From an uncultured Acidobacteriota bacterium (GTDB lineage: Bacteria > Acidobacteriota > Terriglobia > Acidiferrales > UBA7541): DNA of 64,000 nt. Both the position numbers and the translations under genes were made by a program. The DNA lies in contig CAWAYG010000005.1 in assembly GCA_963786205.1 (NCBI GenBank), positions 1,082,826-1,146,825 on the forward strand, written 5' to 3'. This document shows positions 3,704 to 18,436 of this stretch, piece by piece (within the stretch, counting starts at the first letter, position 1; each line of letters begins with the position of its first letter). A model generated the notes under the pieces. It was not told the DNA's origin and did no database searches. It was given only the letters and a program-made list of their open reading frames with translations.

Positions 3704-5995
3704 TCAGTCCGGATTTGCAGTCATGGACGCGCGGCGTCCCGTGGTAATTGAAAAATATTCCATCCACTGCTTCCGAATCCCGTTGGTTCGTTCCATCAGC
3801 TCGCTGCTGGGCTTGGCGCTGTGCTGAACGACCATAACCATCCCGGTGTTGAATCGCCGTTGCGATTTATCAACGTCCGGCACGCGCGGGCCTTCCGCCG
3901 CAATCACGTCTTGAATCGTCACTTTCGTTCTGTCCGCCTTGAAAATAGGACGCCCGCTCGCATCTTTTCCCGCGGGAACCAGATTGCGCAAAATAAAAAA
4001 GTCCGGAACTTCGGTAGGTGAAATCAACCCCATCAAATAGAGGTCGAGGTACGAATAACCCGTCGCGGGCACGTAGTAATCGTCGTCGCGCTGCGTGTAC
4101 GTGCCGTCGAAATTGTCCAGCCACACGCCGCCACCCATGATGGATGCTTCCGTCGGCCGCACGTACGGAAAGGGCACGACGGCCTGCAAGCCCCTTGCCC
4201 AGTGCGTCGGGCCGAGCGGAATTGTTTCATCGCCCACTTTTGCTGAAACGAACGCCGCCCAGCGATGCCCCATTTCGTGTGCGATCTGCGACATCGCATA
4301 CAAGTAAGGAGGCATTTTGCTGTCCTGAGAAATCTCCGCGAGCTGCTGCTGGTAGAAAGTGATGTCGCGATCGTTGCCCACTGGTGCATCCTGTGGCGGC
4401 CGCTCCTGCATTTGGTTCGAGCCCACGTAAACCGGCTGAATGTATTGCCACTGGAATCGGCCGGGTGTGCAGTAGCGGTCGAGTCCGCTCTGCTTCGCGC
4501 CGATTCCGGTGACGGCGCCCCCCACGGCTCCCAACGGACCGTCGCTCGGCGTGCCCGCTTCCTGGTTGTCCACGCGGAAGTCCGAGTAGTAAGCGAGGAA
4601 GTCGTACTGGTCGCCCAAAGTTTTGATCACGCTGCACGTCAAGTCGCGTGGATTCGGCAGCGCGTAGTAGTGGAAGGATTCATAGAGCAGCGGGAACGGG
4701 CCGTCATGCTGCGTGAGCGAAGAAAGATGCACTTCCGGATTGTGAATCGTGCCCAGCTCGACCGGCCGCGCGGGAATCCGCGCCACGGGCGTTTCCGAGC
4801 CGGCGGCGGAGCTTTCGGCAAACACCGCAAGCTGCGCGGTGCCGCGCAGTGCCGGCGGCAGGATTCCCTGAATCGAAATGGTATTTCCGTTGATCTTCAC
4901 CCCGTGCGAGACCCCCGGGCCGAATGCAACGTATCGCGATTTGCCCGCGCTCGCGCGGCGCGGCGCGAAGCCGCGAATCGTCCAGACCGCGTCGGCATCG
5001 GCGGCGCTGGCAGTCTCGCCGGAAACTTTGTGCGCGGCGAAGTAAAGGTGATAACCGATTCCGGAAACTCCCGGATCTCCCGCGGGCAGTATTGGGCCCG
5101 CCGTTTCGAACGTGACCTTCAGGAAAAATTCGTCCACCACCGAAAGTTTCACGTTCTTAACGTCCAGATTCGCCGGCATCGGCACGATGCTGGACGAAGA
5201 AGAGGGCGGGTTTTTCAAGCCGTTCAGCGTGGCCAGCGCCCTTTCCACTCCGCCGGAAATCAGCGGATATAAGCCGACGATCGCGTCCTTGGCCGCAAGC
5301 TCTTGGTACGACATTTCAATTGCACCATCTTTGTGCAGCACGGCCTGGAACCGGTTGACCGTCTTGGTCCAAGTAAAATCCTGAATGTTGCCCCACGGTT
5401 CCGTTACGTCCCACGTCACCACCACGCGATCCGCAAGCTCCTTCACGAATTCATTGCCGGACATCCGCGGCTTGAAAAATACGCAAATCGCCGGAACCGT
5501 ATTCAGCAGGTTCGCGGCCCCTTCGCTGAGCGCGTCGAACCGCCCGATCGAGACTCCTCCTTCATCGCTGCGCGGTGGCGCGCCCCATTCACCAGTCTCG
5601 TAGGATTTGTCGCCGAACCGGATGGATCCCGTAACGCCCATCGAAAACGAATTCCAGCTCTTCCCCGAAAAAGGAAATGTGAAATTTTTCAGCGTCACAT
5701 CGTGCTCGCTCAGCGGCTGGCCAAAATCGGCATCCCAGTTCAACGGAAGATTCTCCACGCTGTACCCCGTGCCCGCGGGCGTAAAACGCAGGGTGCGCTG
5801 GCCCAAGTCGAAGAGTTTCTGCTGTCCGAGCGCGCCCTCGTCCAGCTCCAGCAAAATCAAATTCCCGGCAACGGAGACTTTTCCAATGGGCTTCCCGGGC
5901 GCCTCCCAGTCTTGAGCGAGTGCAGCGGTTCCCGGCAGAACAACGGCGCAAAACAGCAGCAACAGTCGGAAGACAAGGCAATTAGGTTGAGTCAC
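3704..5995 (-). CDS. secreted protein with HExxH zinc-metallopeptidase motif, family unassigned
   Basis: 763 aa with signal peptide MTQPNCLVFRLLLLFCAVVLPGTAALAQ. A single HExxH (SQIAHEMGHRWAAF) sits in the C-terminal third. I recognise no family by eye. Confidence 0.6.
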   Translation of the reverse strand: MTQPNCLVFRLLLLFCAVVLPGTAALAQDWEAPGKPIGKVSVAGNLILLELDEGALGQQKLFDLGQRTLRFTPAGTGYSVENLPLNWDADFGQPLSEHDVTLKNFTFPFSGKSWNSFSMGVTGSIRFGDKSYETGEWGAPPRSDEGGVSIGRFDALSEGAANLLNTVPAICVFFKPRMSGNEFVKELADRVVVTWDVTEPWGNIQDFTWTKTVNRFQAVLHKDGAIEMSYQELAAKDAIVGLYPLISGGVERALATLNGLKNPPSSSSSIVPMPANLDVKNVKLSVVDEFFLKVTFETAGPILPAGDPGVSGIGYHLYFAAHKVSGETASAADADAVWTIRGFAPRRASAGKSRYVAFGPGVSHGVKINGNTISIQGILPPALRGTAQLAVFAESSAAGSETPVARIPARPVELGTIHNPEVHLSSLTQHDGPFPLLYESFHYYALPNPRDLTCSVIKTLGDQYDFLAYYSDFRVDNQEAGTPSDGPLGAVGGAVTGIGAKQSGLDRYCTPGRFQWQYIQPVYVGSNQMQERPPQDAPVGNDRDITFYQQQLAEISQDSKMPPYLYAMSQIAHEMGHRWAAFVSAKVGDETIPLGPTHWARGLQAVVPFPYVRPTEASIMGGGVWLDNFDGTYTQRDDDYYVPATGYSYLDLYLMGLISPTEVPDFFILRNLVPAGKDASGRPIFKADRTKVTIQDVIAAEGPRVPDVDKSQRRFNTGMVMVVQHSAKPSSELMERTNGIRKQWMEYFSITTGRRASMTANPD

Positions 5996-6100
5996 TGTGC
6001 CTCCTCAAGGTTAGGGCGCACCGTATGTATACAATATCCAGTGGCCGAAGCGAACGCATTTAATGTACTCGCCGCGCCCGGTCTCTCCGCAGCAAAGCTT

Positions 6101-8210
6101 CTATCGCACCAATTCCACTTCCTTGACCTCCGTCGTCTGAAACGGCAGCCGCACCGGAAACGTCGTCCCTTTACCCATTTCCGTCACGAAATTAAGCGTC
6201 CCCCCGTGATTATCAACCACCACCGCGCGCGCCAGCGCCAACCCCTGGCCCGTTCCTTTGCCGACTTCCTTCGTGGTGAAAAACGGGTCAAACATTTTGT
6301 CGCGCACTTCTTCCGGTATTCCAGTCCCGGAATCCGTAATGGCGATTTCCACCCAGTCTCCGTCGGCGCGCGTCACGATGCGTATCACGCCCCGCGCTTC
6401 CGTGCCCTTCACCACGTCCCCGATCGCATGCGCCGCGAGCAGTACTCGCCTGGAAAACTATCGCCATTTTTCCGCCAGAAAGTTTCTTCGATGAGGTGCG
6501 CATCGTTGCCGGTGCGCAGGCTGGCGAATACGGGGCAATCCTCCAGTCGGTAAGGCGTGCCGTCGGCGCGCGTGCGATGGATCAGGCCATGAATTTTCTT
6601 GCCGAGAATTTCTTCCGCATCGTCGTAACCCAGCAAGCGCAGCGCCGCGGGATTACAAAACGTGCAATTCGCCTCGAAATCGATTCCGTACATCGCGCCG
6701 GGCGTAGAATCCAGCAGCAGTTTCACCAATTCGCCGCGTTCTGCAAGTTCCGCCGTGCGTTGCGCCACCCGCTCTTCCGGGTCGGTTTGCGCCTCGCGCA
6801 GCGCCTCTTCGGTGCGCTTGAACTCGGTGGCGTCTTCGGTGAGACCCGCGATTTGCTTCAGCAGGCCGCTTTCGTCGCGCAACGGAAAGGTTCGTTCCCA
6901 CAGCCAGCGCACCTCGCCGTTTGGCCGCACAATGCGGAATTGTGTGCCGGTCGCGATGCCGCCGAACTGCTCGGAAATCGCGTGTGCCGCGAGCATCCGA
7001 TCCTCCGGATGCAGCAGTTCGAGCAAACTTCGCGGGTTCGCCGCTAGCGCGTCCCCAGATTTTCGCGAACGCGCTGCTGGCGTAATCGTACGCGCCCGAT
7101 TTCGCGTCGCGAATCCAGCATGCTTGGTCGATATTTTCCGCGATCAGCAGCACTTGCTTCTGGCTTTTTTGCAGCTTCCCCAACATGCCGTCGATGGAGT
7201 TTCCCAGGATGGTCAGCTCATCCCGCCCGCTCACATGGACGCGTTCATCTATCGCGTTGCGCTGCCCGATGCTGTGCACCTCGCGGCTCAGCCCGCCGAT
7301 GCGCGACAAAATAAACTTCTGCATGAAGAAAATAATCGCCAGCGAAAAAATTACCGACCCGCCCAATATCGTTGCAAACAAGTAGAGCCGGCTCAGCTTG
7401 CCGGGCTCATAGATCGGGCGCGGTGTCGCCACCCTCATCAGCAGTAGCGGCTTGCGGAAGCTGTCCGCCAGCATCACGTAGCCCGCGACCGTCTTTTCTG
7501 AGAGTGCCTGGATCGCAAAGTCCTCGTTCCCACCCAAGCTCTTGCGCGCCTGGAGAAAATCCCCGGGGCAGCGACGGCGAATCGATTTGCTCCAATGTGA
7601 TGGTGGTGCGTGTCAGCTCCGCCAGCCGGTCGATTTCTGCTTCGTCGAACTTGCGCGCCAGCATGAACACCCCGCGCGAATCCCCACCTCGTTGCGAAGT
7701 CAAGATCGGGCGCGTGGGTACGATGTACGGTCCATCCGCGAATTCCACGATTCCGTCTTGCGGCATCACGGCCACGGCCGCCGGTTCCAATTGTTGGCGC
7801 GAAAATATCCCCCGTAGAAATTCCGCTGGTACTTCCGCCCGTTGGTGTTTCTGGCGGTCGTAAGCGCGGGCAAATACGATCTTGCCGCGCACGTCCCGGA
7901 TGACTACCAGTTTGAATCCCAGCTGCTCCATCTCCTTGTCTTCAAATTCTGTCCGGATATCCGCTTTGGCCGGCGTTACGATGAATTCGCACATGCGATC
8001 CCAGTACGCATAATCGTCGGTGCTCTCCGCCAGGTTCCGAAAATCCAGATCCAGCACCGCCGTCGCGAATTCCACGTTCCGCTTTATCTGTTCGTCTTCC
8101 AGCTGCCGGAAACTTGCCAGCACCATCTCGCGCGATACCACCTACACGATCGCCGTGCCGATGGCCAGCGTCACCGCGAAAATCAGCAGCATTCTCTGTC
8201 GCAATCTCAC
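6101..8210 (-). pseudogene. sensor histidine kinase (TM - CHASE4-like - HAMP - PAS - PAS - HATPase_c), disrupted
   Basis: Four ORF-track pieces (7407-8141, 6653-7537, 6409-7026, 6101-6415) join into one kinase. An in-frame TAG sits at 8142-8144, after MLLIFAVTLAIGTAIV. The frame changes near 7530-7545 and at the C4 run 7053-7056. The second PAS domain ([13 protein letters not shown]) abuts the ATP-binding N-box remnant ([11 protein letters not shown]) at 6437-6441, with no HisKA domain between them. The G-boxes DSGTGIP and GKGTGQGLA are intact. Confidence 0.8.
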
Positions 8211-8403: not shown

Positions 8404-8477
8404 TGGAGCGGGCGATGGGAATCGAACCCACGTCCGAAGCTTGGGAAGCTTCTATACTGCCATTGTACGACGCCCGC
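8404..8477 (-). tRNA. tRNA-Gly (anticodon CCC)
   Basis: The complement reads GCGGGCG-TC-GTAC-AATGGCA-GTAT-A-GAAGC-TTCCCAA-GCTTC-GGAC-GTGGG-TTCGATT-CCCAT-CGCCCGC-T-CCA. It has a 7-bp acceptor stem, a D arm with GG, a 5-bp anticodon stem with loop TT-CCC-AA, a TTCGATT T-loop, discriminator U and an encoded CCA. Confidence 0.95.
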
Positions 8478-8526: not shown

Positions 8527-8722
8527 GACTCGCCATTTTCCGACAGTTTGCCACTTTCCGAAACCTGCGTTTTCGTCGCGGCAGAATCGTTTGGCCAGCG
8601 CCACCGAAACGCGAGGGACGCGATGGGGTAGCTGAGTGCGAAACCGGTGCTAATCTCGTACTTGGCGCGCGGGGCTGCTTACGTTAGGCTAAGTCGAATT
8701 TGTCGCCAAGGAGACGTGCCCA

Positions 8723-9334
8723 ATGACTCAACAGGCTCCAACGCAGCAAGTTTTGGCGTGTGCGCAATGCGGAAAGACGTTCGGACAATCGGATCTGGTG
8801 CCGATCGCCGGGAATTGGGTTTGCGGCGCTTGCAAGCCGGCTTTTTTGAGCAGGGTCGTAGCGGGCGGACCTGCTGTGGCCTCGTCGCTCCGTTACGCGG
8901 GTGTCGGCATTCGATTCGGCGCCCGCTTCATTGACGGTTTGGTGTTTATGGTTCCCTTTGCGATCGTCGCATTCCTGCTTCTGCCAGGCATGCTGCGAAC
9001 GGCGGGCAACAAGGCGCCTACTATATTCAACGGAACCTTTGTGTTGGTTGCCCTCGTTTTCGGTGTGTTTTATGAAGTCCTGATGCTGCGCTACTGGGGA
9101 GCAACGCTCGGGAAAATGGCCTGTGGGCTTAAAGTCGTACGCTCGGACGGAAGCAGCCTGGACTGGGGCGTTTCGTTTGGCCGCTACTTTATGTACAACG
9201 TGGTAATCTCCGCTGTCCCGTTTGTGAACTGGATCTTGCTCATCACCACAGCCATTATGGCCGGCACGGACGAGCAAAGGCGTGGACTGCATGACCGGGT
9301 ATGTGACACGCGTGTGATCTACACACGGAGCTAG
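8723..9334 (+). CDS. RDD family membrane protein with N-terminal C4 zinc ribbon
   Basis: 203 aa. The zinc ribbon is CAQC-x17-CGAC. The RDD-type core follows (YAGVGIRFGARFIDGLV ... GATLGKMACGLKVVRSDG ... GLHDRVCDTRV) with three hydrophobic segments. AAGGAG lies 9 nt upstream of the ATG. Confidence 0.8.
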   Translation: MTQQAPTQQVLACAQCGKTFGQSDLVPIAGNWVCGACKPAFLSRVVAGGPAVASSLRYAGVGIRFGARFIDGLVFMVPFAIVAFLLLPGMLRTAGNKAPTIFNGTFVLVALVFGVFYEVLMLRYWGATLGKMACGLKVVRSDGSSLDWGVSFGRYFMYNVVISAVPFVNWILLITTAIMAGTDEQRRGLHDRVCDTRVIYTRS

Positions 9335-9336
9335 GA

Positions 9337-10008
9337 TTGAGTCTGAATCTAAACCTGTTCACTGCTGCGCCGAGCAATTCCGAATCGGCCGGCTTCGCAA
9401 CACGTGCGGCCACGGATCTGCCGCAAGCTGCGCCAGGAAGCGTTGCATGCCCCAGCTGCGGCGGGGCTGTTCCGTCCACAGAGCTGCCGAGCGGGTGGCA
9501 GAGCTGTCCCTACTGCGACAAGCGACTGCGGATTCGGGTCTGGCCTGTTGCGCGGCAGAAAACGAATACAGTTTCCGCTATGCCGGAGCACGCGACATGT
9601 TTCTTTCACCCAGAGAAGGCATTTGAGGCTTGCTGCCAGAGGTGCGGCCGGTTTGTGTGCGCGCTGTGCGACTTGCAGCTCGGAGCGGAGCACGTTTGCC
9701 CCACGTGCTTCGAGCGCGGGCGCACCGATACTGGGCTGCAGGGCGGCGCAGCGGAATGGCGCCATCGTGACGTACTCTATGATTCAATCGCGCTGACGAT
9801 CGGGTGGGGCTGGATTTTGGTTTGGCCGTTCATTGTCGCTGCGCTCCCGGCGACGATCGTTTTGCACGTCAAGTTTCGGAAGGCGCCGCGTGCGTATTTG
9901 ATTCCGCGCTCGGGCTGGCGCTTCTGGGTGGCATACGTCGGGTTAGTCTGGCTGCCGTTGCTGATTGCCGGATCCATCTTCATGGCGCGGATGGCGGGGA
10001 GACACTGA
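9337..10008 (+). CDS. membrane protein with C4 zinc ribbon and B-box-type zinc finger
   Basis: 223 aa, TTG start 2 nt after the upstream stop. It has CPSC-x15-CPYC, then C-x2-H-x8-C-x2-C-x4-C-x2-C-x9-C-x2-C (CFFHPEKAFEACCQRCGRFVCALCDLQLGAEHVCPTC), then two hydrophobic helices. Exact start uncertain. Confidence 0.6.
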   Translation: MSLNLNLFTAAPSNSESAGFATRAATDLPQAAPGSVACPSCGGAVPSTELPSGWQSCPYCDKRLRIRVWPVARQKTNTVSAMPEHATCFFHPEKAFEACCQRCGRFVCALCDLQLGAEHVCPTCFERGRTDTGLQGGAAEWRHRDVLYDSIALTIGWGWILVWPFIVAALPATIVLHVKFRKAPRAYLIPRSGWRFWVAYVGLVWLPLLIAGSIFMARMAGRH

Positions 10009-10554
10009 TTGCCCACAGCATTCCGCAAAATATCGCGCATCGGCAGCCTGACGGGTGCGACGAAGTGGTATCTGAGCGAGGACTGTCTGCTAGCCGCCAA
10101 GCGCGTGATGTACGCGGTCGAGTACCGGCGGTTTTACTTGCGCGACCTGGAATCCATTGTGGTCTGGCACAGCCGCACGTGGCTATTGCGGCCGGCCATT
10201 CCCGGCGTGCTGCTGCTCGCGCTCGGTGCTGTGCTGTGGCAATCGGTGAATTTCACGGCTGGGGTGATTGCTGCGGGCGCGGGCCTGGCGTGGGCTGCCT
10301 TGGAACTGGCGCTCGGGCCGACGGCGCAGTCGCGCATTCAGACGACGGGAGCAAGCGTTGACATGCCGATCGTGAAGCGAACGCGTGGCGCCCGCAAGGT
10401 CCTCGCCAAGATTGATGCCGCAGTTCTCGCCACTCGGGGTGGCGCGATGGAGCAGCCGACCGCTGCCATAGACCAGCCCCGACTAGCCACGCCCGCCGGC
10501 CAAACAAAATCCGAATCAGCTCCCTCAGCCGCCCCCATCGGGGATGTAACGTAA
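10009..10554 (+). CDS. hypothetical membrane protein
   Basis: 181 aa. The TTG start directly abuts the upstream TGA. Two hydrophobic segments are visible (LLRPAIPGVLLLALGAVLW, VIAAGAGLAWAALELAL). No family recognised. Coding is supported mainly by its tight packing in the operon. Confidence 0.5.
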   Translation: MPTAFRKISRIGSLTGATKWYLSEDCLLAAKRVMYAVEYRRFYLRDLESIVVWHSRTWLLRPAIPGVLLLALGAVLWQSVNFTAGVIAAGAGLAWAALELALGPTAQSRIQTTGASVDMPIVKRTRGARKVLAKIDAAVLATRGGAMEQPTAAIDQPRLATPAGQTKSESAPSAAPIGDVT

Positions 10555-10558
10555 GCGA

Positions 10559-10936
10559 ATGGCTCCTGACACGCCAGCCGTGCCCTCTGCCGCACTCGCC
10601 GTGTTGCGCTTGCGCCATGCGCGCTGCTTGTTTCATCCGCTGCGTGAGGCGGCGGCGAGGTGCCCGCACTGCGGAGGAACGTTTTGCCGCGAATGCGTTA
10701 CCGACGAGGATGACAAGCTCGCCTGCCCGCCTTGCCTGCGCCGCATGACGCGTCCGCCCGCGCCGAAACCGTCACTGGCGCGCCAGTTCCGTCAGGTCCT
10801 GGCTGGATTTATAGCGCTCGCCTGTCTGATGACACTATTTTTTTCATTGCTCCAGTGGCGCGCGAATAGGCCCGAAATGCATCTGAACTTCGACGGCGCT
10901 ACCGATTCTCGCTTGCCCGGGCCAGCTCATGAGTGA
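10559..10936 (+). CDS. membrane-anchored B-box-type zinc finger protein
   Basis: 125 aa. CLFHPLREAAARCPHCGGTFCRECVTDEDDKLACPPC has the same Cys/His spacing as the finger in 9337-10008. One C-terminal TM helix follows (VLAGFIALACLMTLFFSLL). Confidence 0.6.
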   Translation: MAPDTPAVPSAALAVLRLRHARCLFHPLREAAARCPHCGGTFCRECVTDEDDKLACPPCLRRMTRPPAPKPSLARQFRQVLAGFIALACLMTLFFSLLQWRANRPEMHLNFDGATDSRLPGPAHE

Positions 10937-12689
10937 AGCGGCGGTGGCTACGCTCGCTCCGCAACGTGGACGCTCGATCGTTGCGCGTGCGCGCCGGAGC
11001 CGCCTTAGCGCGCTCGAAGCGCTGGAAGGCGGATTCGCGCTGTTTCGGTCTACATTCGGGCGCGAGGCGTGGCGTTATTATGCCGGCGCGGCGCCGCTCG
11101 CCATATGTTTCATTCCGACGTGGGTGGTTAACGCGCAGGTGCGCGTATCCAGCGGCGGACTGCTCATGGAGGCGCTGATACTTGCCGCGGCGTATCTGCT
11201 GCGCGTGTGGGCGGTCGCCCGCTACATGCAAGGCGTTCGTGAGCGCGCGTTCGGCGTGCCGATAGCGAAACGCGCGGATCGTGCCGCGAAGGCTGCGGCG
11301 TTGGGACGCCTGCTGGCGTGGAAAATCACTTTGAGCGCCGCTGCTTTGGTGACGCTGCCCACCGTCGCAGGCGCGTCGTGGCTCTACAGCGCTTGCCAAT
11401 TCGCAAGTCTCGAGGCTTCAGAGGACTCGGCTGAGCGACATTCCGTTCGCGGCTGCCTGGCGCTTGCGGGCGAATGGTTCGGCGGCGGGCTGCTACTATT
11501 TCTCATGCTTTTCCCTCTGTGGATTGCCGTGTGGCTGAACTGCTTGCTCCTGGCGATAGTCGTGCCGCAACTGCTGCACTCAATTTTTGGGGTAGATACC
11601 CTTTTGTCGACGCAAATGGGCGCCTACTCGCTAGGTAGCAGTTCCGCGTTCTGGCTTTCGCTTTTCGGGGGGGCGTGGCTGGCGCTCGATCCGGTCGTCA
11701 AGTGTACGTACGTGGTCGTTTATCAGCATTTGCGTTCGCGGCGCGAAGGAGACGACCTGCGCGGGTTACTCGCAAGCCTGCCAAGCCAGCAGAAAAAGAA
11801 AGCAGAGATGATTGGATCCGCCGGAGTTGGGCGCGGCGCGGGGCTCGGTTGGTTGGTCATCCTTGCCACGATTCTGCTTGGCCCTTCGCAAATAGCCGCG
11901 CGCTCTACGCAAGCGCCGCCAAGCCGCAGCATCGCAGAAACAGCCGCCGATCCAGCGCGCCAGGAGCGCGTGCAAGAATTGCGTCAAGCCCTTGATGCGG
12001 AATCGCAGCGCGCGATTTATCGCTGGCATGACACCGAGCATCCGAGCCCGCCCACTTGGTTCGACAAGGCGCTCGCCAGGATTGGACATGCCATCGAGAG
12101 TGTCTGGGACGCGTTCTTGAATTTCCTGAAGAAACTTTGGCCACGCGGGTTGGATTTCTCGCCGGGGGCGAATGGTGGATGGCGGCTGAAAGACCTCCGC
12201 TTTTGGCTGGCGCTGGTGGTGGCGTTGACCTTGGCGGTGGGAGCGATGCTATTTTGGCTTCGGCGACGCCGCGATGCGCCCCAGATCTCCATTCCCGTCG
12301 CGGCAGCAGCGCTGTCCGACCTGCACGACGCGGCGGTTGCTAGCGAACGTTCGGAGGACGAATGGTTTGCGCTGGCAAACCGGTTGGAGGGCGAGGGCAA
12401 ATTGCGGCTGGCACTGCGTGCGGCGTACCTGGGCTTGCTCGCCGGATTGGCGCAACGCGCATGGCTGACGATTCGGCGCGATCGCACGAATCGCGAATAC
12501 CTCGATGAGTTTACGCGGCGGTGGCGGCGGCGTCCGCAAGCGGCGGTCGAGGCGCGTGCGGAAATTCCTGAGAAAGTGCGCGGTAGCCTGCGGCAGTTCG
12601 ATCGCGTGTGGTATGGATCTCATGCGCTGACGCCAGCTTCGGTCGCGTCGTACTGCCAAGATCAGCGTGAGTTGCTCACCCATGTCTGA
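10929..12689 (+). CDS. polytopic membrane protein with C-terminal DUF4129 domain
   Basis: 586 aa with many hydrophobic segments in the N-terminal half. The C-terminus (EWFALANRLEGEGKLRLALRAAYLGLLAGLAQRAWLTIRRDRTNREYLDEF) matches the DUF4129 pattern. The start overlaps the upstream stop (ATGAGTGA). Confidence 0.7.
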   Translation: MSEAAVATLAPQRGRSIVARARRSRLSALEALEGGFALFRSTFGREAWRYYAGAAPLAICFIPTWVVNAQVRVSSGGLLMEALILAAAYLLRVWAVARYMQGVRERAFGVPIAKRADRAAKAAALGRLLAWKITLSAAALVTLPTVAGASWLYSACQFASLEASEDSAERHSVRGCLALAGEWFGGGLLLFLMLFPLWIAVWLNCLLLAIVVPQLLHSIFGVDTLLSTQMGAYSLGSSSAFWLSLFGGAWLALDPVVKCTYVVVYQHLRSRREGDDLRGLLASLPSQQKKKAEMIGSAGVGRGAGLGWLVILATILLGPSQIAARSTQAPPSRSIAETAADPARQERVQELRQALDAESQRAIYRWHDTEHPSPPTWFDKALARIGHAIESVWDAFLNFLKKLWPRGLDFSPGANGGWRLKDLRFWLALVVALTLAVGAMLFWLRRRRDAPQISIPVAAAALSDLHDAAVASERSEDEWFALANRLEGEGKLRLALRAAYLGLLAGLAQRAWLTIRRDRTNREYLDEFTRRWRRRPQAAVEARAEIPEKVRGSLRQFDRVWYGSHALTPASVASYCQDQRELLTHV

Positions 12690-13953
12690 GAATAATTCTA
12701 GCGAAAGCACGGGGCTCAACTGGCGAGGTCCGCTGCTGGCTGCTGCGATTTTCGCGGCTGTATTCGCCGTTCTGTTGCTCATGGCGCATCAGAATCAGGC
12801 GAATACGAGTGACATGGGATCCAGCCTCCGGCAGGACCCTTACGGCACCAGCCTGCTATTCGACGCCTATGAGCGCGCTGGGTACCATGTCGATCGCAGC
12901 CAGGATCAGGACGCGCTCGCCGATCAGAACGCGTCGCGGACGACTGCGTTCTTTATCGGTGGCTATCCCTCTGGCGATTGGGAAATGGAAAATGGAAAGC
13001 CTCGCACCGGACCGAAATTTCTGGGGCGACTGGAGAATTTTCTAGCCCGCGGCGGGCGCGTCGTCTTGGTCCAGCCTGCTTGGAGACTAAGCTCCGAGTC
13101 TCAAGGCTGGGAAGTGGAGAACAAGTGGATCCAAGGACAACAGGTGTCGGATCCAGCCTGGGTCTCTCCCGATCTCCGCGTCATGCCGGCTGGCAGCGAG
13201 AGCATGTATCTCACCGCTAGGGCCCCGTGGCTGAAAACCGACGCCCACTGGACAACGCTCTATGGGGCGCCGGTGGACCCCGGTGCCAACGCTGACTCCT
13301 CTGCGCGTGTTTATCTTGCAATGCTGCGAGTCGGGAAAGGCGAACTGGTCGCGGCGAGCCAGGAATCCTTCTTGCTGAACGAAGCGATCAAGATGCGTCC
13401 GAATCCGGTGCTGCTGGATTTTCTCGCGGGCGGACGGCCGGTGATTTGGGTAGATGAAACACTGCACGGATTGCACCAGGATCAGGGCGCGCTCTGGCTG
13501 GTGCAGCGCTATCGGCTGCAAGCGGCGCTACTGCTTTTCTGGGCCGCTTTGCTAACACTGCTCTGGAGTCTGAGTGGCGATTTGGTGCGGCGTCCGCCGC
13601 GCGACTGGAGGGCGGAGGTCGTCCGCAATGGCGAGAGCGCTGGCGTGGCCGGGCAACGCCTGCTGCAACGGAGTATTTCGACCGAGCGGGCTGTGGCGGA
13701 ATGTTGGGAGCAGTTCAACCGTCGCTCGCCACAGGATGCGAAGGTCATCAGCACCGACCCTCGTTGGGGCTCTCGACTGCGCGCTGCGCTCGCGAAGGCC
13801 CCTTTGCCGGGGTACAAGGAATTGACGGAACTGATCGGCGAACGGCGCGCGACTGCGAAGGGCCTGCGACACCTGGCTCAAGCTGACAGTGGACGGTCGG
13901 ATAGAGATTCCGTTTCGCCGAAGACGACTCCCGAGGAGGCACGAATCGCATGA
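12682..13953 (+). CDS. DUF4350-like protein with N-terminal membrane anchor
   Basis: The ATG at 12682 overlaps the upstream stop (ATGTCTGA). An N-terminal TM helix ([16 protein letters not shown]) is followed by [19 protein letters not shown], typical of DUF4350, and there is a late TM helix ([17 protein letters not shown]). The family call rests partly on its conserved position next to MoxR/DUF58. Confidence 0.6.
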
Positions 13954-14978
13954 ACGAGGAACCCGTACTGGATTCAGACTTGCCGGCGCGGTCCGCGAGC
14001 GCGGAAACGCAACCGCAGGCCGCGCTCGCAACGGTCACCAGCGGCGCGCGGCGCGTCAGAGAGAAGCTGGGCCGCGTGATTGTCGGCCAAGACGAAGCGA
14101 TTGATCTAGCGCTGGTGACGCTGCTCGCTGGCGGTCATGCGTTGATCGAAGGCGTTCCCGGAGTGGGGAAAACGCTGCTGGCGAAGGCGCTGGCGCGCGC
14201 GGTAGGCGGCGAATTTCAGCGCATTCAGTTCACGCCAGACCTGATGCCCGCAGATATCACCGGGACGAGCGTCTTCGACCTGAAGACGCAAGAATTCCGC
14301 TTGGTGCGCGGGCCCATATTCACGAACTTCTTATTAGGAGACGAAATCAATCGCGCACCGGCGAAAACGCAATCGGCTCTGCTGGAAGCCATGCAAGAGC
14401 GGCAGGTGACGATCGATCGCGCGAGCTACGCGCTGCCGCCGGTATTCGTCGTTTTCGCAACGCAAAACCCGATCGAGCATCAGGGCACGTATCCGCTTCC
14501 AGAGGCGCAGAAGGACCGCTTTCTCGTAAAAATTCGCATGGGCTATCCGGCGGTGGAAGACGAAAACGAGCTGGCGCGGCTGGTGGCGGCAGGCGAAGCG
14601 CCGGAGCGCCGTCTGACGGAGGAACTGCGCGCGCCAGTTTTGCGGCCGGGCGAACTGGATCAGTTGCGCGCGACGACGGCGCGTGTGCGAGTCAGCGAGG
14701 CCGTAAGCACCTACATAGTCAGTTTGGTTCGGCAGATACGGCAGCACGCGGCGGTATGGGTTGGCGCCGGGCCGCGGGCGACGCTCGCGCTGTTGTCGGC
14801 GTCGCGGGCGCTCGCGGCGCTGGAGGAGCGCGATTTCGTGCTGCCCGAGGACGTAAAGACGCTGGCTGCGCCCGTGCTAGAGCATCGCATGCTGCTGCGG
14901 CCGGAGTTCGAGATGGAAGGTGTCGAGCGGCGTGAAGTCATCAACGCAGTGCTGGAGGCCGTTGAAGTGCCGCGGTAG
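13950..14978 (+). CDS. MoxR family AAA+ ATPase
   Basis: 342 aa with Walker A GVPGVGKT and Walker [32 protein letters not shown] is typical of the MoxR/AAA_3 subfamily. ATGA overlap with the upstream gene. Confidence 0.9.
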
Positions 14979-15027
14979 GCAGCGAGCCGCGTAGCCGATG
15001 CGGACACGGTAAAGAGGCAAGCGAATC

Positions 15028-16617
15028 ATGACGGCGATGAATGAGAACTCAAGCGACGTTGCTGTGCCGGGCGCGGCAGCTATGGTCGCGGTGATCGAAT
15101 CGACAGCGAAGCCGACGAGCCACGCTCTACAATCGCGCGACAATTCGGTTGAGCGGATCGCATTTCAGCCGTCGCGAACGCTGTTGAGCCCGGCGGCAGC
15201 ATTGCCGTGGTTGCTAGGATCGCTGGGCGTCGCCGCGTGCATCGCACCATGGCTGACGCGCGGATGGCAGTGGCTCGATCTGATTGCCGCCACCGTGATT
15301 CTGGCGGGGTGTTACGACGCATTTGCGCTCTGGTTTGCGCGCAAAGAATTCGTGCCCGTCCTGCTGTCGTCGAAGGAAGGACTTCGCGGACGCGAAGGGC
15401 AGAGCATCCAGATTCCGCTTGCGCTTGCAGGCTCTGGACGGCGCCCATCGCGCAGCGAAGTTCGGCTTGCAATCATGACCGCCACGCGAGAGAGCGAGAC
15501 CGCCATATCGGTAAATAGCGGTCCTCAACGTGTGAGGCTTGAGCGCTCGGAACCAGCCGAGGGACGATCGGGCTCAGCCAGCAACGCGCTCGTCCACCTC
15601 TGGCCTTGGACCCCGCAGGTCGCGTTGCTGCGGCGCGGCCTGTGGCCTGCGCCGCGCGTCGGAATCGAGCGGCTCTCGCGCTTCGGGATTTGGCGCTTGC
15701 GTCAATGGTTCGATTCACCGGCGCTGTTGCGGATCGATGCAGATTTGCGGCCTGGGCGGCGCGCAATCTTGCGCAGCCCCGTTTACCGCGCGCTGGCGGC
15801 GGCGCGGCAGTTTCCTTGGATCGGGCACGGGCGCGAGTTCGAGCGCTTGCGCGAATATCAAGCGGGCGACAACTACGCCGAAATCGCGTGGAAATCCACG
15901 GCGCGACGCGGCGTTCCAGTTACACGGCTGTTCCAGTGGGAGCAGAAGCAGGAAGTATATTTCGTGGTCGACCAATCGCGCGCTTTGGCGTTGCCTATCG
16001 ATCCGGCATTGGAAAGCGACGCCAACATCCCGCAGGCACAAGCGCCGAGGCGGCTGCTGGATCTAGCCGTCGAAACAGCGCTGGTGGGCGCGACCGTTGC
16101 CTTGGAATTGGGCGACGAATTCGGACTTGTAACCTACGCGGACGAACCGAAAACCTGGTTGCGGGCGGGAAGCGGCCAATTCCAATTTCGCCAATTCCGC
16201 GAGCGGCTTCTGAATTTGGAACCTCTGCCGACGACCGCGGATTACGAGGCGCTTTTTAGCAAAATTCGGCTGCAGCTGCGGCGGCGCGCTTACCTGGTGC
16301 TGCTGGCCGACTTGGCGGAGCGCTCGATTTCAGATTCGATGCGACGCGGAGTCGCGCTGCTCCACACCTCGCACGTCGTTTTGATGACGAGTGTTCTGCC
16401 CGCTCACGCGCGCCCGGCATTTTCACCAGGGGAGCAGCCTCGGACCGATCAGGATGTGTACGCGGCGCTGGCGGGAGAAAAGGAAAACCAGCGCCTGGCA
16501 GCGCTCGCACGTCAATTGCGCCAATTGGGCGCGGAATTGCGTTTTGTCCCGCCCGAGAATTTTCTGCGAACGGCCGTGGAAGGTTACCTCGAAAGCAAGC
16601 GGGAGCAACGGGTGTGA
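15028..16617 (+). CDS. DUF58 domain protein (MoxR partner, VWA-like fold)
   Basis: 529 aa with two N-terminal hydrophobic segments. It carries the DUF58 signature REYQAGDNYAEIAWKSTARRGVPVTRLFQWEQ. Confidence 0.85.
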   Translation: MTAMNENSSDVAVPGAAAMVAVIESTAKPTSHALQSRDNSVERIAFQPSRTLLSPAAALPWLLGSLGVAACIAPWLTRGWQWLDLIAATVILAGCYDAFALWFARKEFVPVLLSSKEGLRGREGQSIQIPLALAGSGRRPSRSEVRLAIMTATRESETAISVNSGPQRVRLERSEPAEGRSGSASNALVHLWPWTPQVALLRRGLWPAPRVGIERLSRFGIWRLRQWFDSPALLRIDADLRPGRRAILRSPVYRALAAARQFPWIGHGREFERLREYQAGDNYAEIAWKSTARRGVPVTRLFQWEQKQEVYFVVDQSRALALPIDPALESDANIPQAQAPRRLLDLAVETALVGATVALELGDEFGLVTYADEPKTWLRAGSGQFQFRQFRERLLNLEPLPTTADYEALFSKIRLQLRRRAYLVLLADLAERSISDSMRRGVALLHTSHVVLMTSVLPAHARPAFSPGEQPRTDQDVYAALAGEKENQRLAALARQLRQLGAELRFVPPENFLRTAVEGYLESKREQRV

Positions 16618-17645
16618 TTCTCGACCTCCAACGGTTTCAGGCGCAAGAGCAGCCGCGCTGGGACAAACTCGAATGGCTGCTCGCCCAGCTGGAAAGCCGG
16701 CCGGATCGGCGTCTGAAACCCGGCGAAGCCGAACTGCTGCAAGAGCTCTACGCCCAAACTGCCGCGGATTTGAATCGCGTCATACACGGCGCGTTGGCAC
16801 CCGACTTAAGGCAATATCTCGAACGGCTGGTGGCGCGGGCTTACGCGGATATTTACTACGCTCAACCGACACGCTCCGAACTCTGGCAGCCCCGCCGCTG
16901 GCTGCGGATTTTCACGGCATTTCCGGAGGCCTTCCGGCGGCAGTCCCGCTATTTCGCGCTCGCCGTCCTGATCACTATTTTGGGCTGTGCTTTCGGAGGC
17001 TTGGCGGTGCGCTACGACCCAGCGTCCGTGGATGTGCTGCTTCCCGCCGATTACCTGCGCAATCCGAGTCTACGCGTGCAGCAAGAGGAGAAAGGGCAGA
17101 ACCGGCATCTGGACTCTGCGCAGACGGAGGCGCAATTCTCAGCGCAACTGATCACACACAATATTCAGGTCGCGCTGCTGGCGGCGGCGCTTGGCGTAAC
17201 GTTTGGCATTGGGACGGCGTTACTGCTTTTCGAAAATGGCTTGCTGCTCGGCGCCGTGGCGGTTCGTTACACGCAGCAAGGCTTCGGATTATTCGTTACG
17301 GCATGGCTGCTGCCGCATGGCGCGTTCGAGATCCCGTCCATCCTGATTGCTGGGCAAGCTGGATTCTATCTGGCGCGCTTGCTGCTGCGGCGGCGCGAGG
17401 ACCGCAACGTGCGTCAATCCATGCGCGAATGGTTGCTGCTGATCGCGGGGCTGGCGATGATGCTGGTCTGGGCCGGAACTATGGAGGCGTTTTTTTCGCA
17501 GCATCAGGCTCCGGTGTTGCCGTATGGGTTCAAGGTCGCGGTTGGCGCGGCGGAGCTGGTGCTCCTGACCATCTATCTGCTGCTGATTGGGCGAAGCGAC
17601 ACCGGCGCGGTTGCACCCGCGAGCCTGCCAGCGGAGAGTAAATGA
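16614..17645 (+). CDS. SpoIIM-like (stage II sporulation protein M family, formerly DUF95) membrane protein
   Basis: 343 aa, GTGA overlap with DUF58. Soluble N-terminal part, then about six TM helices. LLPHGAFEIPSILIAGQAG is characteristic of the family. Confidence 0.75.
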   Translation: MILDLQRFQAQEQPRWDKLEWLLAQLESRPDRRLKPGEAELLQELYAQTAADLNRVIHGALAPDLRQYLERLVARAYADIYYAQPTRSELWQPRRWLRIFTAFPEAFRRQSRYFALAVLITILGCAFGGLAVRYDPASVDVLLPADYLRNPSLRVQQEEKGQNRHLDSAQTEAQFSAQLITHNIQVALLAAALGVTFGIGTALLLFENGLLLGAVAVRYTQQGFGLFVTAWLLPHGAFEIPSILIAGQAGFYLARLLLRRREDRNVRQSMREWLLLIAGLAMMLVWAGTMEAFFSQHQAPVLPYGFKVAVGAAELVLLTIYLLLIGRSDTGAVAPASLPAESK

Positions 17646-18436
17646 AGAATTCTCAGCCAAACCGTTTGCCCACGATTGCCGAACTGACAATCGCGACTCC
17701 AGAAGGCGTGCTCTTTCGATTGCCGCTGGCCGGTCCCGCGGCGCGGCTTTACGCGATGCTGCTCGATATCGCAATCGTGCTGGCGGGGATAAACGGGCTC
17801 GGTTACCTGGTTTACTTGATTCTTGCGAAAGCACCCGGATTCGCGGCGATGACCATCACGCTCGCGGAATTCGCCATCGGGTTTGCCTATGGCGCATTGC
17901 TGGAAGGATTTTGGAATGGCCAGACAATCGGGAAACGCCTGTTCCACTTACGTGTAATTGACCAGTCAGGGCTTCCGCTACGGATCGAACAGGCGTGGGT
18001 ACGCAATCTGATGCGCACGGTTGATGCGTTGCCGCTGGCGTACCTGGTCGGAGGGGTTTCCGCGCTGAGCAGCCCGATTATGCAGCGTTTCGGCGACCGC
18101 GTGGCTGGAACCCTGGTTGTCCGCGAAACCCCTCTAGCTGCTCCGGCGGAGGAAGCCTCGAGCCGTCAGAAGTACAACTCCTTCACGGACTATCCTGTGA
18201 TTGCCATGCGTCTGCGCCGAGCAGCGACGCCGGAGCTAGCCGGTCTCATCCAGGATGCGTTACGCCGCCGCAACGAGCTGGCACCCTACGCGCGGCGGGA
18301 AATTTATCGCGAGCTGGCGACCTACCTACAGAGCGAGATCGCTCCATTTCCCGACGAACTGGTTGAGATGCTAAGCGACGAGCAGTATTTGACGAATGCG
18401 GCCGGCGTGCTCCTCGCCAGTCAACGTGCCTGGTAG
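17642..18436 (+). CDS. RDD family membrane protein
   Basis: 264 aa, ATGA overlap with the upstream gene. RDD-type core ARLYAMLLDIAIVLAG ... GQTIGKRLFHLRVIDQSG ... RFGDRVAGTLVV, with a soluble C-terminal extension. Confidence 0.8.
   Translation: MKNSQPNRLPTIAELTIATPEGVLFRLPLAGPAARLYAMLLDIAIVLAGINGLGYLVYLILAKAPGFAAMTITLAEFAIGFAYGALLEGFWNGQTIGKRLFHLRVIDQSGLPLRIEQAWVRNLMRTVDALPLAYLVGGVSALSSPIMQRFGDRVAGTLVVRETPLAAPAEEASSRQKYNSFTDYPVIAMRLRRAATPELAGLIQDALRRRNELAPYARREIYRELATYLQSEIAPFPDELVEMLSDEQYLTNAAGVLLASQRAW

Follow-up and report, generated by a model that had tools for sequence, protein, structure and literature searches.

A ten-gene MoxR-DUF58 membrane operon kept in order across bacterial phyla: a putative two-module, ATP-driven complex of the inner membrane

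Ten consecutive genes on the forward strand, numbered here g1 to g10, occupy positions 8723-18436 of a 64,000-nucleotide (nt) stretch of DNA from an uncultured Acidobacteriota bacterium (contig CAWAYG010000005.1; this whole stretch is called the window), as seen from the listing of its open reading frames (ORFs) and their translation. The ten genes are a single, real operon whose gene order is shared by three or more bacterial phyla and which encodes a soluble AAA+ motor of the MoxR type, a tethered vWA-like adaptor of the DUF58 family and eight further membrane proteins. The products probably form an ATP-driven complex in the inner membrane, and an envelope-embedded complex of this kind is the most reasonable reading of the cassette. 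In its specific form, to which we give a probability of about 0.4, the operon would encode a two-module inner-membrane complex driven by MoxR, in which DUF58 would bridge the ATPase to the co-encoded membrane proteins and the resulting remodelling would act at the envelope.

The ten genes overlap or abut, with spacings of +2, 0, +4, -8, -8, -4, +49, -4 and -4 nt from g1 through to g10. The start codon is ATG in g1, TTG in g2 and g3 and GTG in g9; a Shine-Dalgarno sequence, AAGGAGA, precedes g1 and GGAG-like strings precede g2 and g3. Comparison with three relatives places all ten ORFs under purifying selection, with ratios of nonsynonymous to synonymous substitution rates (dN/dS) of 0.07-0.35, and g2, g3 and g4, which have no Pfam support, are therefore real genes. 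Independent gene calls display an equally tight packing in the relatives L003 and L087 (loci carry the prefix L throughout), and the ten-gene block is found again with differing flanks in other genomes. The packing in relatives, the dN/dS values and the recurrence in different surroundings together mean that the arrangement is not a product of chance. Thus, since the genes overlap or abut, a single conserved promoter-like element stands at their head and their order recurs, the array constitutes one unit. A first-pass annotation of this DNA had already proposed the packed ten-gene array; every junction string that it quoted is found where it had been placed, and the MoxR motif and REYQAGDNYAEIAWKSTARRG that it cited are both present in the translations. 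The six families that it assigned, RDD (twice), DUF4129, DUF4350, MoxR/AAA_3, DUF58 and SpoIIM, all score above the Pfam thresholds, and RDD proteins do stand at both ends of the array (g1, 1e-22; g10, 7.4e-16). Its count of hydrophobic segments in nine of the ten products agrees with the hydropathy scan, where such spans are clear in nine and absent from MoxR g7, and the neighbourhood comparison recovers the six core families together, in the order it gave, in other phyla. NCBIfam provides a specific name for none of the ten products and no named family for nine of them, and Pfam finds neither VWA nor TPR matches in the cassette.

The promoter-like element CTTGGCGCGCGGGGCTGCTTACGTTAGGCT is located upstream of g1 (Table 1). 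Its exact 30-mer occurs once in the window and, in an alignment of upstream regions from close relatives, its conservation exceeds that of synonymous sites. An nhmmer profile of the element recovers exactly one forward-strand copy per locus in 40 Acidobacteriota loci and in the window, always directly 5' of the first cassette gene, and the strict pattern CTTGGC-N12-TTGCG-N-TAGGCT has a single match in each of 25 loci. A generic consensus promoter scan did not flag the element, and consensus scans for promoters and terminators were uninformative within the operon. We infer that the element is the putative promoter of the operon. In the closest relatives the conservation spans about 150 nt (8576-8722) and includes repeated CGAAAC motifs, which could be candidate binding sites for a regulator.

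Table 1. Coordinates of the ten genes and of the upstream element in the window (TM, transmembrane).
Feature	Position	Strand	Description
Element CTTGGCGCGCGGGGCTGCTTACGTTAGGCT	8661..8690	+	Conserved promoter-like element, TTGGCG-17 nt-TAGGCT; 33 nt 5' of the g1 ATG, with the Shine-Dalgarno sequence after it
g1	8723..9334	+	N-terminal C-x2-C...C-x2-C zinc ribbon, then RDD with 3 TM segments
g2	9337..10008	+	Zinc ribbon, B-box-like binuclear zinc finger, C-terminal TM hairpin
g3	10009..10554	+	Cytosolic N-domain with YKRFYFxDIQAI, TM hairpin, GPTC..TAVQTE segment
g4	10559..10936	+	B-box-like zinc finger, one TM segment, short tail on the opposite side of the membrane
g5	10929..12689	+	Polytopic; N-terminal helical TM domain (about 25-295), C-terminal DUF4129 bundle
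g6	12682..13953	+	DUF4350: N-terminal anchor, ectodomain of about 240 residues, second TM segment, cytosolic tail of about 120 residues
g7	13950..14978	+	MoxR-type AAA+ ATPase; the only soluble product
g8	15028..16617	+	DUF58: N-terminal TM hairpin, middle domain, vWA-like domain
g9	16614..17645	+	SpoIIM family: about 6 TM segments, cytosolic helical N-domain of about 110 residues
g10	17642..18436	+	RDD with conserved C-terminal soluble domain of about 100 residues

The distribution of the cassette was followed in species-representative genomes scanned with the C-terminal g5 motif F[ED]RVWYGx[HY] (24-sequence alignment). The scan returned 304 stretches, 282 of them encoding g5 relatives; 80 loci were fetched and compared through six-frame translations searched with iterated profiles of the ten window proteins. 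About 50 of the 80 form a close Acidobacteriota-type group in which g5 is mostly 65-89% identical to that of the window; these genomes are species-level and mostly named Terriglobales or Candidatus Acidiferrales, and the named g5 homologues similarly come from metagenome-assembled genomes (MAGs) of Terriglobales and "Candidatus Acidiferrales". The other fetched loci, with g5 at 25-34% identity, belong to Desulfobacterales, to Verrucomicrobiota (Limisphaerales, Pedosphaera, Akkermansiaceae and Chthoniobacterales) and to unclassified MAGs. Loci with g5 at least 53% identical derive from MAGs mostly named Acidobacteriota, a few being named for other phyla. Of the latter kind are the cassettes of L017, L029, L030 and L039, whose g5 is 65-74% identical and whose MAGs carry the labels Dormiibacterota, Candidatus Cybelea, Baltobacteraceae and Verrucomicrobiia; such off-phylum, Acidobacteriota-like cassettes would reflect either mis-binning or recent horizontal transfer. 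The full order g1-g10 is present in 45 of the first 83 loci fetched, and most of the others are interrupted by contig ends. Complete distant cassettes include L056, L059, L063, L065, L076, L078, L082 and L083, and all ten genes keep their order in loci of Acidobacteriota, Verrucomicrobiota and Desulfobacterota, at a g5 identity as low as 25-28%. In L065 (Limisphaerales) the Pfam order reads GYF_2 plus RDD, weak B-box, no match, weak B-box, DUF4129, DUF4350, AAA_3, DUF58, SpoIIM and RDD, and in L087 the source gene calls and precomputed Pfam assignments give the identical ten genes, with overlaps of -4, -20, -4 and -4 nt.

Judged from gene content, the cassette combines two parts: a head module comprising g1-g4 with the g5 N-domain, and a core of six families that is widespread. 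The six core families are adjacent and follow the order DUF4129-DUF4350-MoxR-DUF58-SpoIIM-RDD in the window, L065, L087 and L089. Rhizobium and Paracoccus replicons display DUF805, a short DUF4129 protein, DUF4350, MoxR, DUF58, SpoIIM and RDD in order; the alphaproteobacterial DUF4129 and DUF4350 matches are weak and below the Pfam thresholds, and hhalign comparison of the g5 and g6 profiles with the single short Rhizobium proteins gave nothing significant. The loci L084 (Candidatus Moduliflexus, of the candidate phylum KSB3) and L085 have g1-g5 and lack g6-g10, whereas L086 carries g1-g5, then a gene for a GDSL lipase, then g6. The head is therefore integral yet separable, as g1-g5 occur without the MoxR part in some genomes. 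Its zinc fingers had been taken for an addition specific to this genome, which is wrong because the full ten-gene order is present in distant loci with g5 of 25-28% identity; g1-g4 are kept in order, with invariant Cys and His residues, in Verrucomicrobiota and Desulfobacterota. Some Verrucomicrobiota loci carry g3-g6 alone (L069, L072 and L074) or g1-g8 without g9-g10 (L075, L079 and L081). The related genomes L085 and L086, in which MoxR, DUF58, SpoIIM and RDD are not present at the locus, have a rhomboid-family gene directly 5' of g1 (6353-7312 and 6087-7025, respectively) and the GDSL lipase gene 3' of g5 (11792-13189 and 11891-13270), which in L086 lies between g5 and the DUF4350 gene. 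On a Bernardetia replicon (Bacteroidota; L090, 8067-10845), an RDD gene is divergent from a gene for a 617-residue SpoIIM fusion, with neither MoxR nor DUF58 at the locus and with glycosyltransferase, OstA-like and PorP/SprF genes adjoining the pair; this arrangement suggests that SpoIIM and RDD may be a functional pair in their own right.

The surroundings of the cassette were surveyed with Pfam on 123 ORFs around 21 distant cassettes. Among the 124 families in this census none is present in more than 5 of the 123 ORFs, the most frequent being EngA-type GTPases and TPR proteins. The census therefore yields neither a conserved eleventh gene nor a co-encoded enzyme client, defence or mobile genes are not enriched around these cassettes, and the cassette is self-contained. 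Since the census shows no enrichment, neighbouring polysaccharide, rhomboid and S49 genes are anecdotal and are not used as evidence.

The core genes g6-g10 encode the motor, its adaptor and three membrane proteins. The DUF4350 protein g6 (Pfam 1.1e-9) has TM segments at about 15-37 and 279-301 by hydropathy, and the alignment locates the invariant residues of its ectodomain within the motifs SxLRxDPxG, SNEA and DETHxG; a GldG-like fold has been assigned to the DUF4350 ectodomain (PMC5898192). MoxR g7 matches AAA_3 over the full model (1-131 of 131; 9.5e-63) and AAA_lid_2 (5.9e-22), with a secondary bpMoxR match at 2e-12. Its Walker A (GVPGVGKT) and Walker B (LLGDE) motifs are intact, its dN/dS is 0.09-0.11 and a protein lookup found no exact copy on record. 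The DUF58 gene g8 begins 49 nt 3' of g7, and the MoxR-DUF58 pairing is present in all complete cassettes. The g8 product matches DUF58 (PF01882, 7.5e-16) and displays the signature REY-x-GD...W[KR]-x-[ST]A[RK], which is conserved across phyla. An intact metal ion-dependent adhesion site (MIDAS), D-x-S-x-S, was not found in g8, the site reading D-Q-S-R-A in the window and D-A-S-R-L in orthologues; the second MIDAS Ser is missing in all 15 aligned g8 sequences (D-x-S-R-[A/L]). SpoIIM g9 (PF01944, 5e-36) is 42-46% identical between phyla with many invariant polar residues, and its N-domain is DUF8413 in newer Pfam, as listed for orthologues. Similarly, RDD g10 (Pfam 7.4e-16) is 37-41% identical between phyla, with R35, D42 and D152 among its invariant residues and a dN/dS of 0.07-0.13. 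Proteins g9 and g10 are the most conserved membrane components across phyla. Profiles of g6, g9 and g10 found nothing credible among PDB sequences, and an AlphaFold2 model of g9 from its single sequence was unusable, with a mean predicted local distance difference test (pLDDT) score of 48.

The long DUF4129 protein g5 contributes to both modules. In its middle part, two TM segments surround a loop of about 100 residues containing the invariant W366, and the TM segment 424-446 precedes DUF4129, which Pfam locates at residues 499-577 (4.5e-6; 27.1 bits against a cut-off of 24.8). At E ≤ 1e-3 the g5 family falls into 1678 clusters (50% identity), and homologues that cover the full length share 24-38% identity. 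An AlphaFold2 model built on 130 diverse homologues has a mean pLDDT of 77.7, reaching about 90 over most of the N-domain (25-295) and of the DUF4129 bundle (470-586). The homologues used in the modelling derive from a search with g5 omitted; with g5 included, only Acidobacteriota-type relatives at least 64% identical were recovered. Foldseek comparison of the model with the PDB gave no match at E ≤ 1e-3. No Transglut_core or related match was found in g5, even at E ≤ 10 on the N-terminal 462 residues, and neither a peptidase domain nor a catalytic Cys-His-Asp set was detected; the N-terminal TM domain matches no Pfam family, that of the TgpA N-terminus included. The DUF4129 part (12323-12686, residues 466-586) weakly resembles the HEPN-like four-helix bundles 2q00 and 1ufb (Foldseek, E > 1). 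A reading of DUF4129 as a HEPN RNase was considered, as it contains an R-x5-H-like string (RVWYGxH; RVWYGSH in the window), but neither the R nor the H is invariant and the reading was rejected.

The head genes g1, g2 and g4 encode membrane-tethered proteins with cysteine-rich modules, and g3 one with a soluble domain of no known family. The RDD domain of g1 (Pfam 1e-22) follows a ribbon whose Cys residues are conserved in the alignment, and g1 orthologues outside Acidobacteriota carry an added N-terminal GYF_2 domain (in L065, GYF_2 3.5e-15 and RDD 1.5e-25). The dN/dS of g1 is 0.21-0.29. Two tandem copies of g1 precede g2 in eight Acidobacteriota loci (L010, L011, L015, L017, L024, L026, L030 and L043), and, when the window is compared with L044 or L006, no other gene has diverged as far as g1, whose synonymous divergence (dS) is about 1.2-1.3 versus about 0.35 for the others. 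The tandem copies and the high dS suggest that paralogue replacement or recombination may have occurred at the operon head. In g2 (dN/dS about 0.3), the cross-phylum alignment reveals the invariant pattern C-x2-C..C-x2-C followed by C-x2-H-x9-C-x2-C-x4-C-x2-C..C-x2-C, and in g4 the invariant pattern C-x2-H-x7-C-x2-C-x4-C-x2-C-x8/9-C-x2-C with one TM helix after it. The eight Cys/His ligands, with cross-brace spacing, are invariant in 15 sequences of each of the two families. The g2 of the window has no Pfam match, and its g4 reaches ANCHR-like_BBOX at E=0.009 only (16.5 bits against a cut-off of 27, below threshold), with an ANCHR-like_BBOX-type match of 3.7e-4 in the L065 orthologue of g4. 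Among the 57 members of the g2 and g4 families, 27 match ANCHR-like_BBOX (best 2.3e-7) and 27 match zf-B_box (best 3.5e-5) at E ≤ 0.01. As a sequence-based assignment, B-box-like is sound at the family level, the window proteins themselves being sub-threshold. The third head protein, g3 (dN/dS 0.25-0.35), has no Pfam match in any of 33 family members, and its profile found no relative among PDB sequences. It occurs as a long form of about 350 residues, with an extra C-terminal TM block, in Desulfobacterales and Limisphaerales (L056, L059, L063, L065 and L082) and as a short form of about 180 residues in Acidobacteriota and some Verrucomicrobiota.

The literature search revealed no functional study of the cassette or of the mycobacterial core. 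No description of the ten-gene form, which combines a long g5 with the conserved head of B-box, GYF and RDD domains, was found in the literature searched; the core neighbourhood can be recognised in annotated genomes, and a prediction of 2015 covers part of it. Outside the MoxR/vWA pair, no component has a studied relative that explains its function. The statement of the first-pass annotation that the other families have no defined role was slightly too strong, as roles of RDD (SppI; antiporter) and SpoIIM proteins are on record. The studied MoxR/vWA pairs RavA-ViaA, CbbQ-CbbO, NorQ-NorD and BchI-BchD each consist of an AAA+ hexamer and a vWA adaptor, the latter linking the hexamer to its specific client; they act on identified soluble or membrane enzymes, mostly with an intact MIDAS. 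In contrast, the cassette has no linked enzyme client and its MIDAS is reduced. The polytopic protein of MoxR-DUF58(vWA)-YebA/TgpA operons, which we take from its Pfam description to end in a TM segment followed by DUF4129, provides another parallel, since both systems pair MoxR and a vWA adaptor with a polytopic membrane protein. The g5 protein differs from YebA/TgpA in lacking a transglutaminase or peptidase domain and in its N-terminal TM domain, which belongs to no Pfam family. Zhang and Aravind proposed in 2012 that MoxR-vWA and a polytopic transglutaminase-like protein, which co-occur, form a membrane-proximal degradation system (PMC3495828). From its presence in the window and in the Rhizobium cluster, DUF4129 appears to be a recurrent partner of MoxR-DUF58. 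The Bat (Bacteroides aerotolerance) operon is unlike the cassette, as TM-vWA proteins BatA/BatB and the TPR protein BatC are not found after MoxR-DUF58.

The core has relatives in Archaea, Mycobacteria and Alphaproteobacteria. Makarova et al. predicted in 2015 that archaeal DUF4350 (arCOG01314), MoxR and vWA proteins form a secretion or membrane-remodelling complex, and noted that SpoIIM homologues stand beside genes for vWA proteins and COG0714 ATPases in bacteria (PMC5898192). This archaeal system, which is itself a prediction only, shares with the cassette an operon for a COG0714 MoxR, a vWA/DUF58 protein and a DUF4350 protein whose ectodomain is large and whose C-terminus carries a TM segment, and g6 has the arCOG01314 layout of anchor, large ectodomain, C-terminal TM segment and MoxR and DUF58 neighbours. 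In contrast, the archaeal system adds S-layer-like immunoglobulin-domain proteins (arCOG02884 and arCOG03442), none of which is among the ten products here; its vWA protein is predicted to be secreted, whereas the soluble part of DUF58 is predicted to be cytosolic here; and the partners in the cassette are DUF4129, SpoIIM, RDD and zinc-finger proteins. The mycobacterial (Rv3691-Rv3695; MAB_0386c-0392c) and alphaproteobacterial clusters contain the same Pfam families, the latter in the same order and tightly packed, and differ in having no g1-g4 head and a short DUF4129 protein of about 245 residues without a g5-type polytopic N-domain; a DUF805 protein takes the place of the head in the Rhizobium cluster. 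The 'c' in the name Rv3694c would place the SpoIIM gene of M. tuberculosis on the opposite strand. In a published table the DUF4350, MoxR, DUF58, SpoIIM and RDD genes of M. chelonae and M. abscessus are equated with Rv3691-Rv3695, and the M. chelonae core genes shift expression together (PMC8191103). Rv3694c (SpoIIM) and Rv3695 (RDD) were found to co-purify with Rv0954, a protein of the divisome (PMC8093794).

The true SpoIIM protein g9 and the true RDD proteins g1 and g10 are shared with the Bacillus DMP engulfment complex and with SppI-SppA, precedents in which a membrane protein organises or regulates an extracytoplasmic hydrolase. Spore formation is not known in Acidobacteriota. The cassette has no gene for SpoIID/SpoIIP or SppA, and none is consistently adjacent to it among the flanks of the census. 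In Bacillus, SpoIIM serves as a scaffold for the engulfment hydrolases (reviewed in PMC5898192), and the protease SppA is bound and inhibited by SppI, an RDD protein (PMC7568657). For another RDD protein, from Halobacillus, cation/proton (Na+/H+) antiport has been reported (PMC5996927), and the Aravind group described in RDD a conserved intramembrane binding site that faces the cytoplasm (PMC12419801).

The positive-inside tally assigns to the cytoplasm the large soluble domains of g3, g4, the g5 C-terminus, the g6 tail, g8 and the g9 N-terminus, while the g6 ectodomain and probably also the g5 loop 323-423 are predicted outside the membrane. The protein-protein contacts, the direction of coupling and the envelope target that we infer for the favoured complex would be as follows. 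Module B, the widespread core, would extend from the C-terminal half of g5 to g10 (DUF4129, DUF4350, MoxR, DUF58, SpoIIM and RDD), and module A, with g1-g4 and the g5 N-domain, would be a set of membrane-tethered, cytosol-facing adaptors, including a zinc ribbon, two B-box-like fingers, one unknown domain and, outside Acidobacteriota, GYF. DUF58, with its vWA-like domain hanging from a TM hairpin, would recruit the cytosolic MoxR hexamer to the membrane and, by analogy with RavA-ViaA, CbbQ-CbbO and NorQ-NorD, would act as the client-holding adaptor. The client would be the co-encoded membrane proteins themselves, with docking likely at the cytosolic DUF4129 bundle of g5 and at the DUF4350 tail. 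ATP hydrolysis would then remodel or assemble the complex, altering the DUF4350 ectodomain and the g5 loop, which would be its only sizeable extracytoplasmic parts, together with the SpoIIM-RDD pair. The net action would fall on the cell envelope, for example through export, assembly or turnover of an envelope component, and the head module would serve as a cytosolic input or substrate-recognition platform. Several points weigh against this reading. The topology, derived from crude hydropathy and a positive-inside charge count, leaves g1 and g2 ambiguous. With the second MIDAS Ser of DUF58 lost, clients may not be bound in the classical, metal-mediated way. Since no envelope-biogenesis gene is consistently linked to the cassette, the envelope target depends solely on topology and on weak analogies, namely the GldG-like ectodomain and the role of SpoIIM in engulfment. 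Finally, SpoIIM-RDD and the head may work without the ATPase, as each of them occurs away from MoxR-DUF58.

Other explanations account for parts of the same evidence. A chance juxtaposition of unrelated small operons would be compatible with the 49-nt gap between g7 and g8, which could hold an internal start, and with the separation of sub-modules in some genomes; however, the ten-gene order is conserved across phyla at 25-45% protein identity, stops and starts overlap and a single conserved element lies upstream, and because of the cross-phylum conservation chance is effectively refuted and retains a negligible probability. Alternatively, the cassette could extract membrane proteins or control their quality, with B-box/RING-like fingers and GYF recognising damaged or orphan clients that MoxR, through DUF58, would pull out for a protease encoded elsewhere; such a device would be a functional analogue of degradation associated with the endoplasmic reticulum (ER) and of the predicted MoxR-vWA-YebA membrane-proximal degradation. 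Conserved, membrane-tethered, B-box-like binuclear fingers and an AAA+ motor with its adaptor fit this scheme, but there is no protease, ubiquitin-like protein or conjugation enzyme within the cassette, and MoxR-family ATPases are generally seen as remodelling chaperones and not as threading unfoldases. An extraction machine is also consistent with the prediction of MoxR-vWA and a polytopic transglutaminase-like partner as a degradation system (PMC3495828), with the rhomboid gene directly 5' of g1 in L085 and L086, and with the S49 (SppA-type) peptidase gene that adjoins the L087 cassette, SppA being regulated by the RDD protein SppI (PMC7568657). The rhomboid and S49 neighbours are, however, restricted to one or two lineages and not enriched, and we consider extraction rather unlikely.

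Transmembrane sensing is an unlikely alternative, in which envelope or redox stress would be perceived by the intramembrane ligand sites of RDD and by the zinc- and Cys-rich cytosolic domains, the latter working as anti-sigma-like tethers or as switches that respond to redox state or zinc, and MoxR would reset the sensor. A finger followed by a single TM segment and a short ecto-tail, as in g4, is typical of tethered regulators, RDD has been proposed to couple lipid-linked events to signalling (PMC12419801), and the mycobacterial core cluster changes expression as a block (PMC8191103). In contrast, the g4 finger is B-box-like and does not contain the HxxxCxxC anti-sigma motif, the cassette has no sigma factor, kinase, cyclase or DNA-binding domain, with none consistently adjacent, and ten conserved structural genes would be a large investment for a sensor. 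Insertion of a cofactor or metal is the experimentally established role of several MoxR/vWA pairs, and the many Cys-rich, apparently metal-binding modules of the cassette would suit a chaperone that, like NorQ-NorD, CoxD and the chelatases, serves a membrane enzyme whose gene lies elsewhere. The link to the chelatases, and how it has been reinterpreted, are discussed in earlier work (PMC3495828, PMC5898192). Nevertheless, the flank census revealed no candidate client enzyme in or beside the cassette in any lineage, the MIDAS is degenerate and the conserved partners are polytopic proteins without recognisable redox or metal-enzyme domains, making this function decidedly unlikely. A conflict system of the MoxR-vWA type, directed against phages or acting through abortive infection with the membrane proteins as effectors, appears very improbable. 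MoxR-vWA modules are described as core parts of conflict systems (PMC7159879), and both the bpMoxR match of g7 and the varied contexts and modular variants of the cassette point in that direction. PADLOC, however, gave weak generic AAA matches for g7 only (best 1.6e-5) and none for the other nine products; no nuclease, protease, TIR, caspase or other effector domain is present; the flanks are housekeeping and not defence or mobile genes; and the cassette was recovered from about 50 species-level Acidobacteriota genomes under strong purifying selection.

A more far-reaching reading of the cassette, which we regard as rather improbable, would be an unrecognised inner-membrane machine in which a B-box/RING-like and GYF platform selects clients and MoxR, through the tethered vWA adaptor, extracts them from the membrane or translocates them across it through a SpoIIM-RDD-DUF4129 core. 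If true, such a machine would be the functional counterpart, in prokaryotes, of ER-associated retrotranslocation, or else a new route for secretion or insertion, and it would draw on at least four families without a solved structure and three without family annotation. Should the cassette prove to be an export or extraction device, it would add a new class to the known envelope systems. In bacteria and archaea, MoxR-proper ATPases that have DUF58 partners rank with the commonest AAA+ systems and have no assigned client, and the cassette provides an unusually complete, self-contained set of candidate MoxR partners that is kept together across phyla. Solving its function would thus provide roles for RDD, non-sporulation SpoIIM, DUF4129, DUF4350 and bacterial membrane-tethered B-box fingers, together with a defined MoxR client.

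The genes that flank the cassette in the window are unrelated to it. On its 3' side follow a YCII gene, on the minus strand, a decarboxylase of the UbiD family and PilM. Upstream, a tRNA-Gly gene (anticodon CCC; 8404-8477, minus strand), which is the sole Rfam match, is divergent from the cassette, and the promoter-like site TAGACC-18 nt-TATAAT accompanies it at 8526-8497. There is no tRNA at the equivalent position in the relatives L001-L003, and the cassette therefore sits in differing contexts. Further upstream, the long ORFs 3704-5995 (minus strand) and 5303-6553 (plus strand) overlap each other and have no Pfam match. Between these and the tRNA, a CHASE4 ORF (7407-8141) and a HAMP ORF (6653-7537), both on the minus strand, overlap by about 130 nt in different frames and appear to be the two parts of a single sensor gene, divided by either a frameshift or an error in sequencing.

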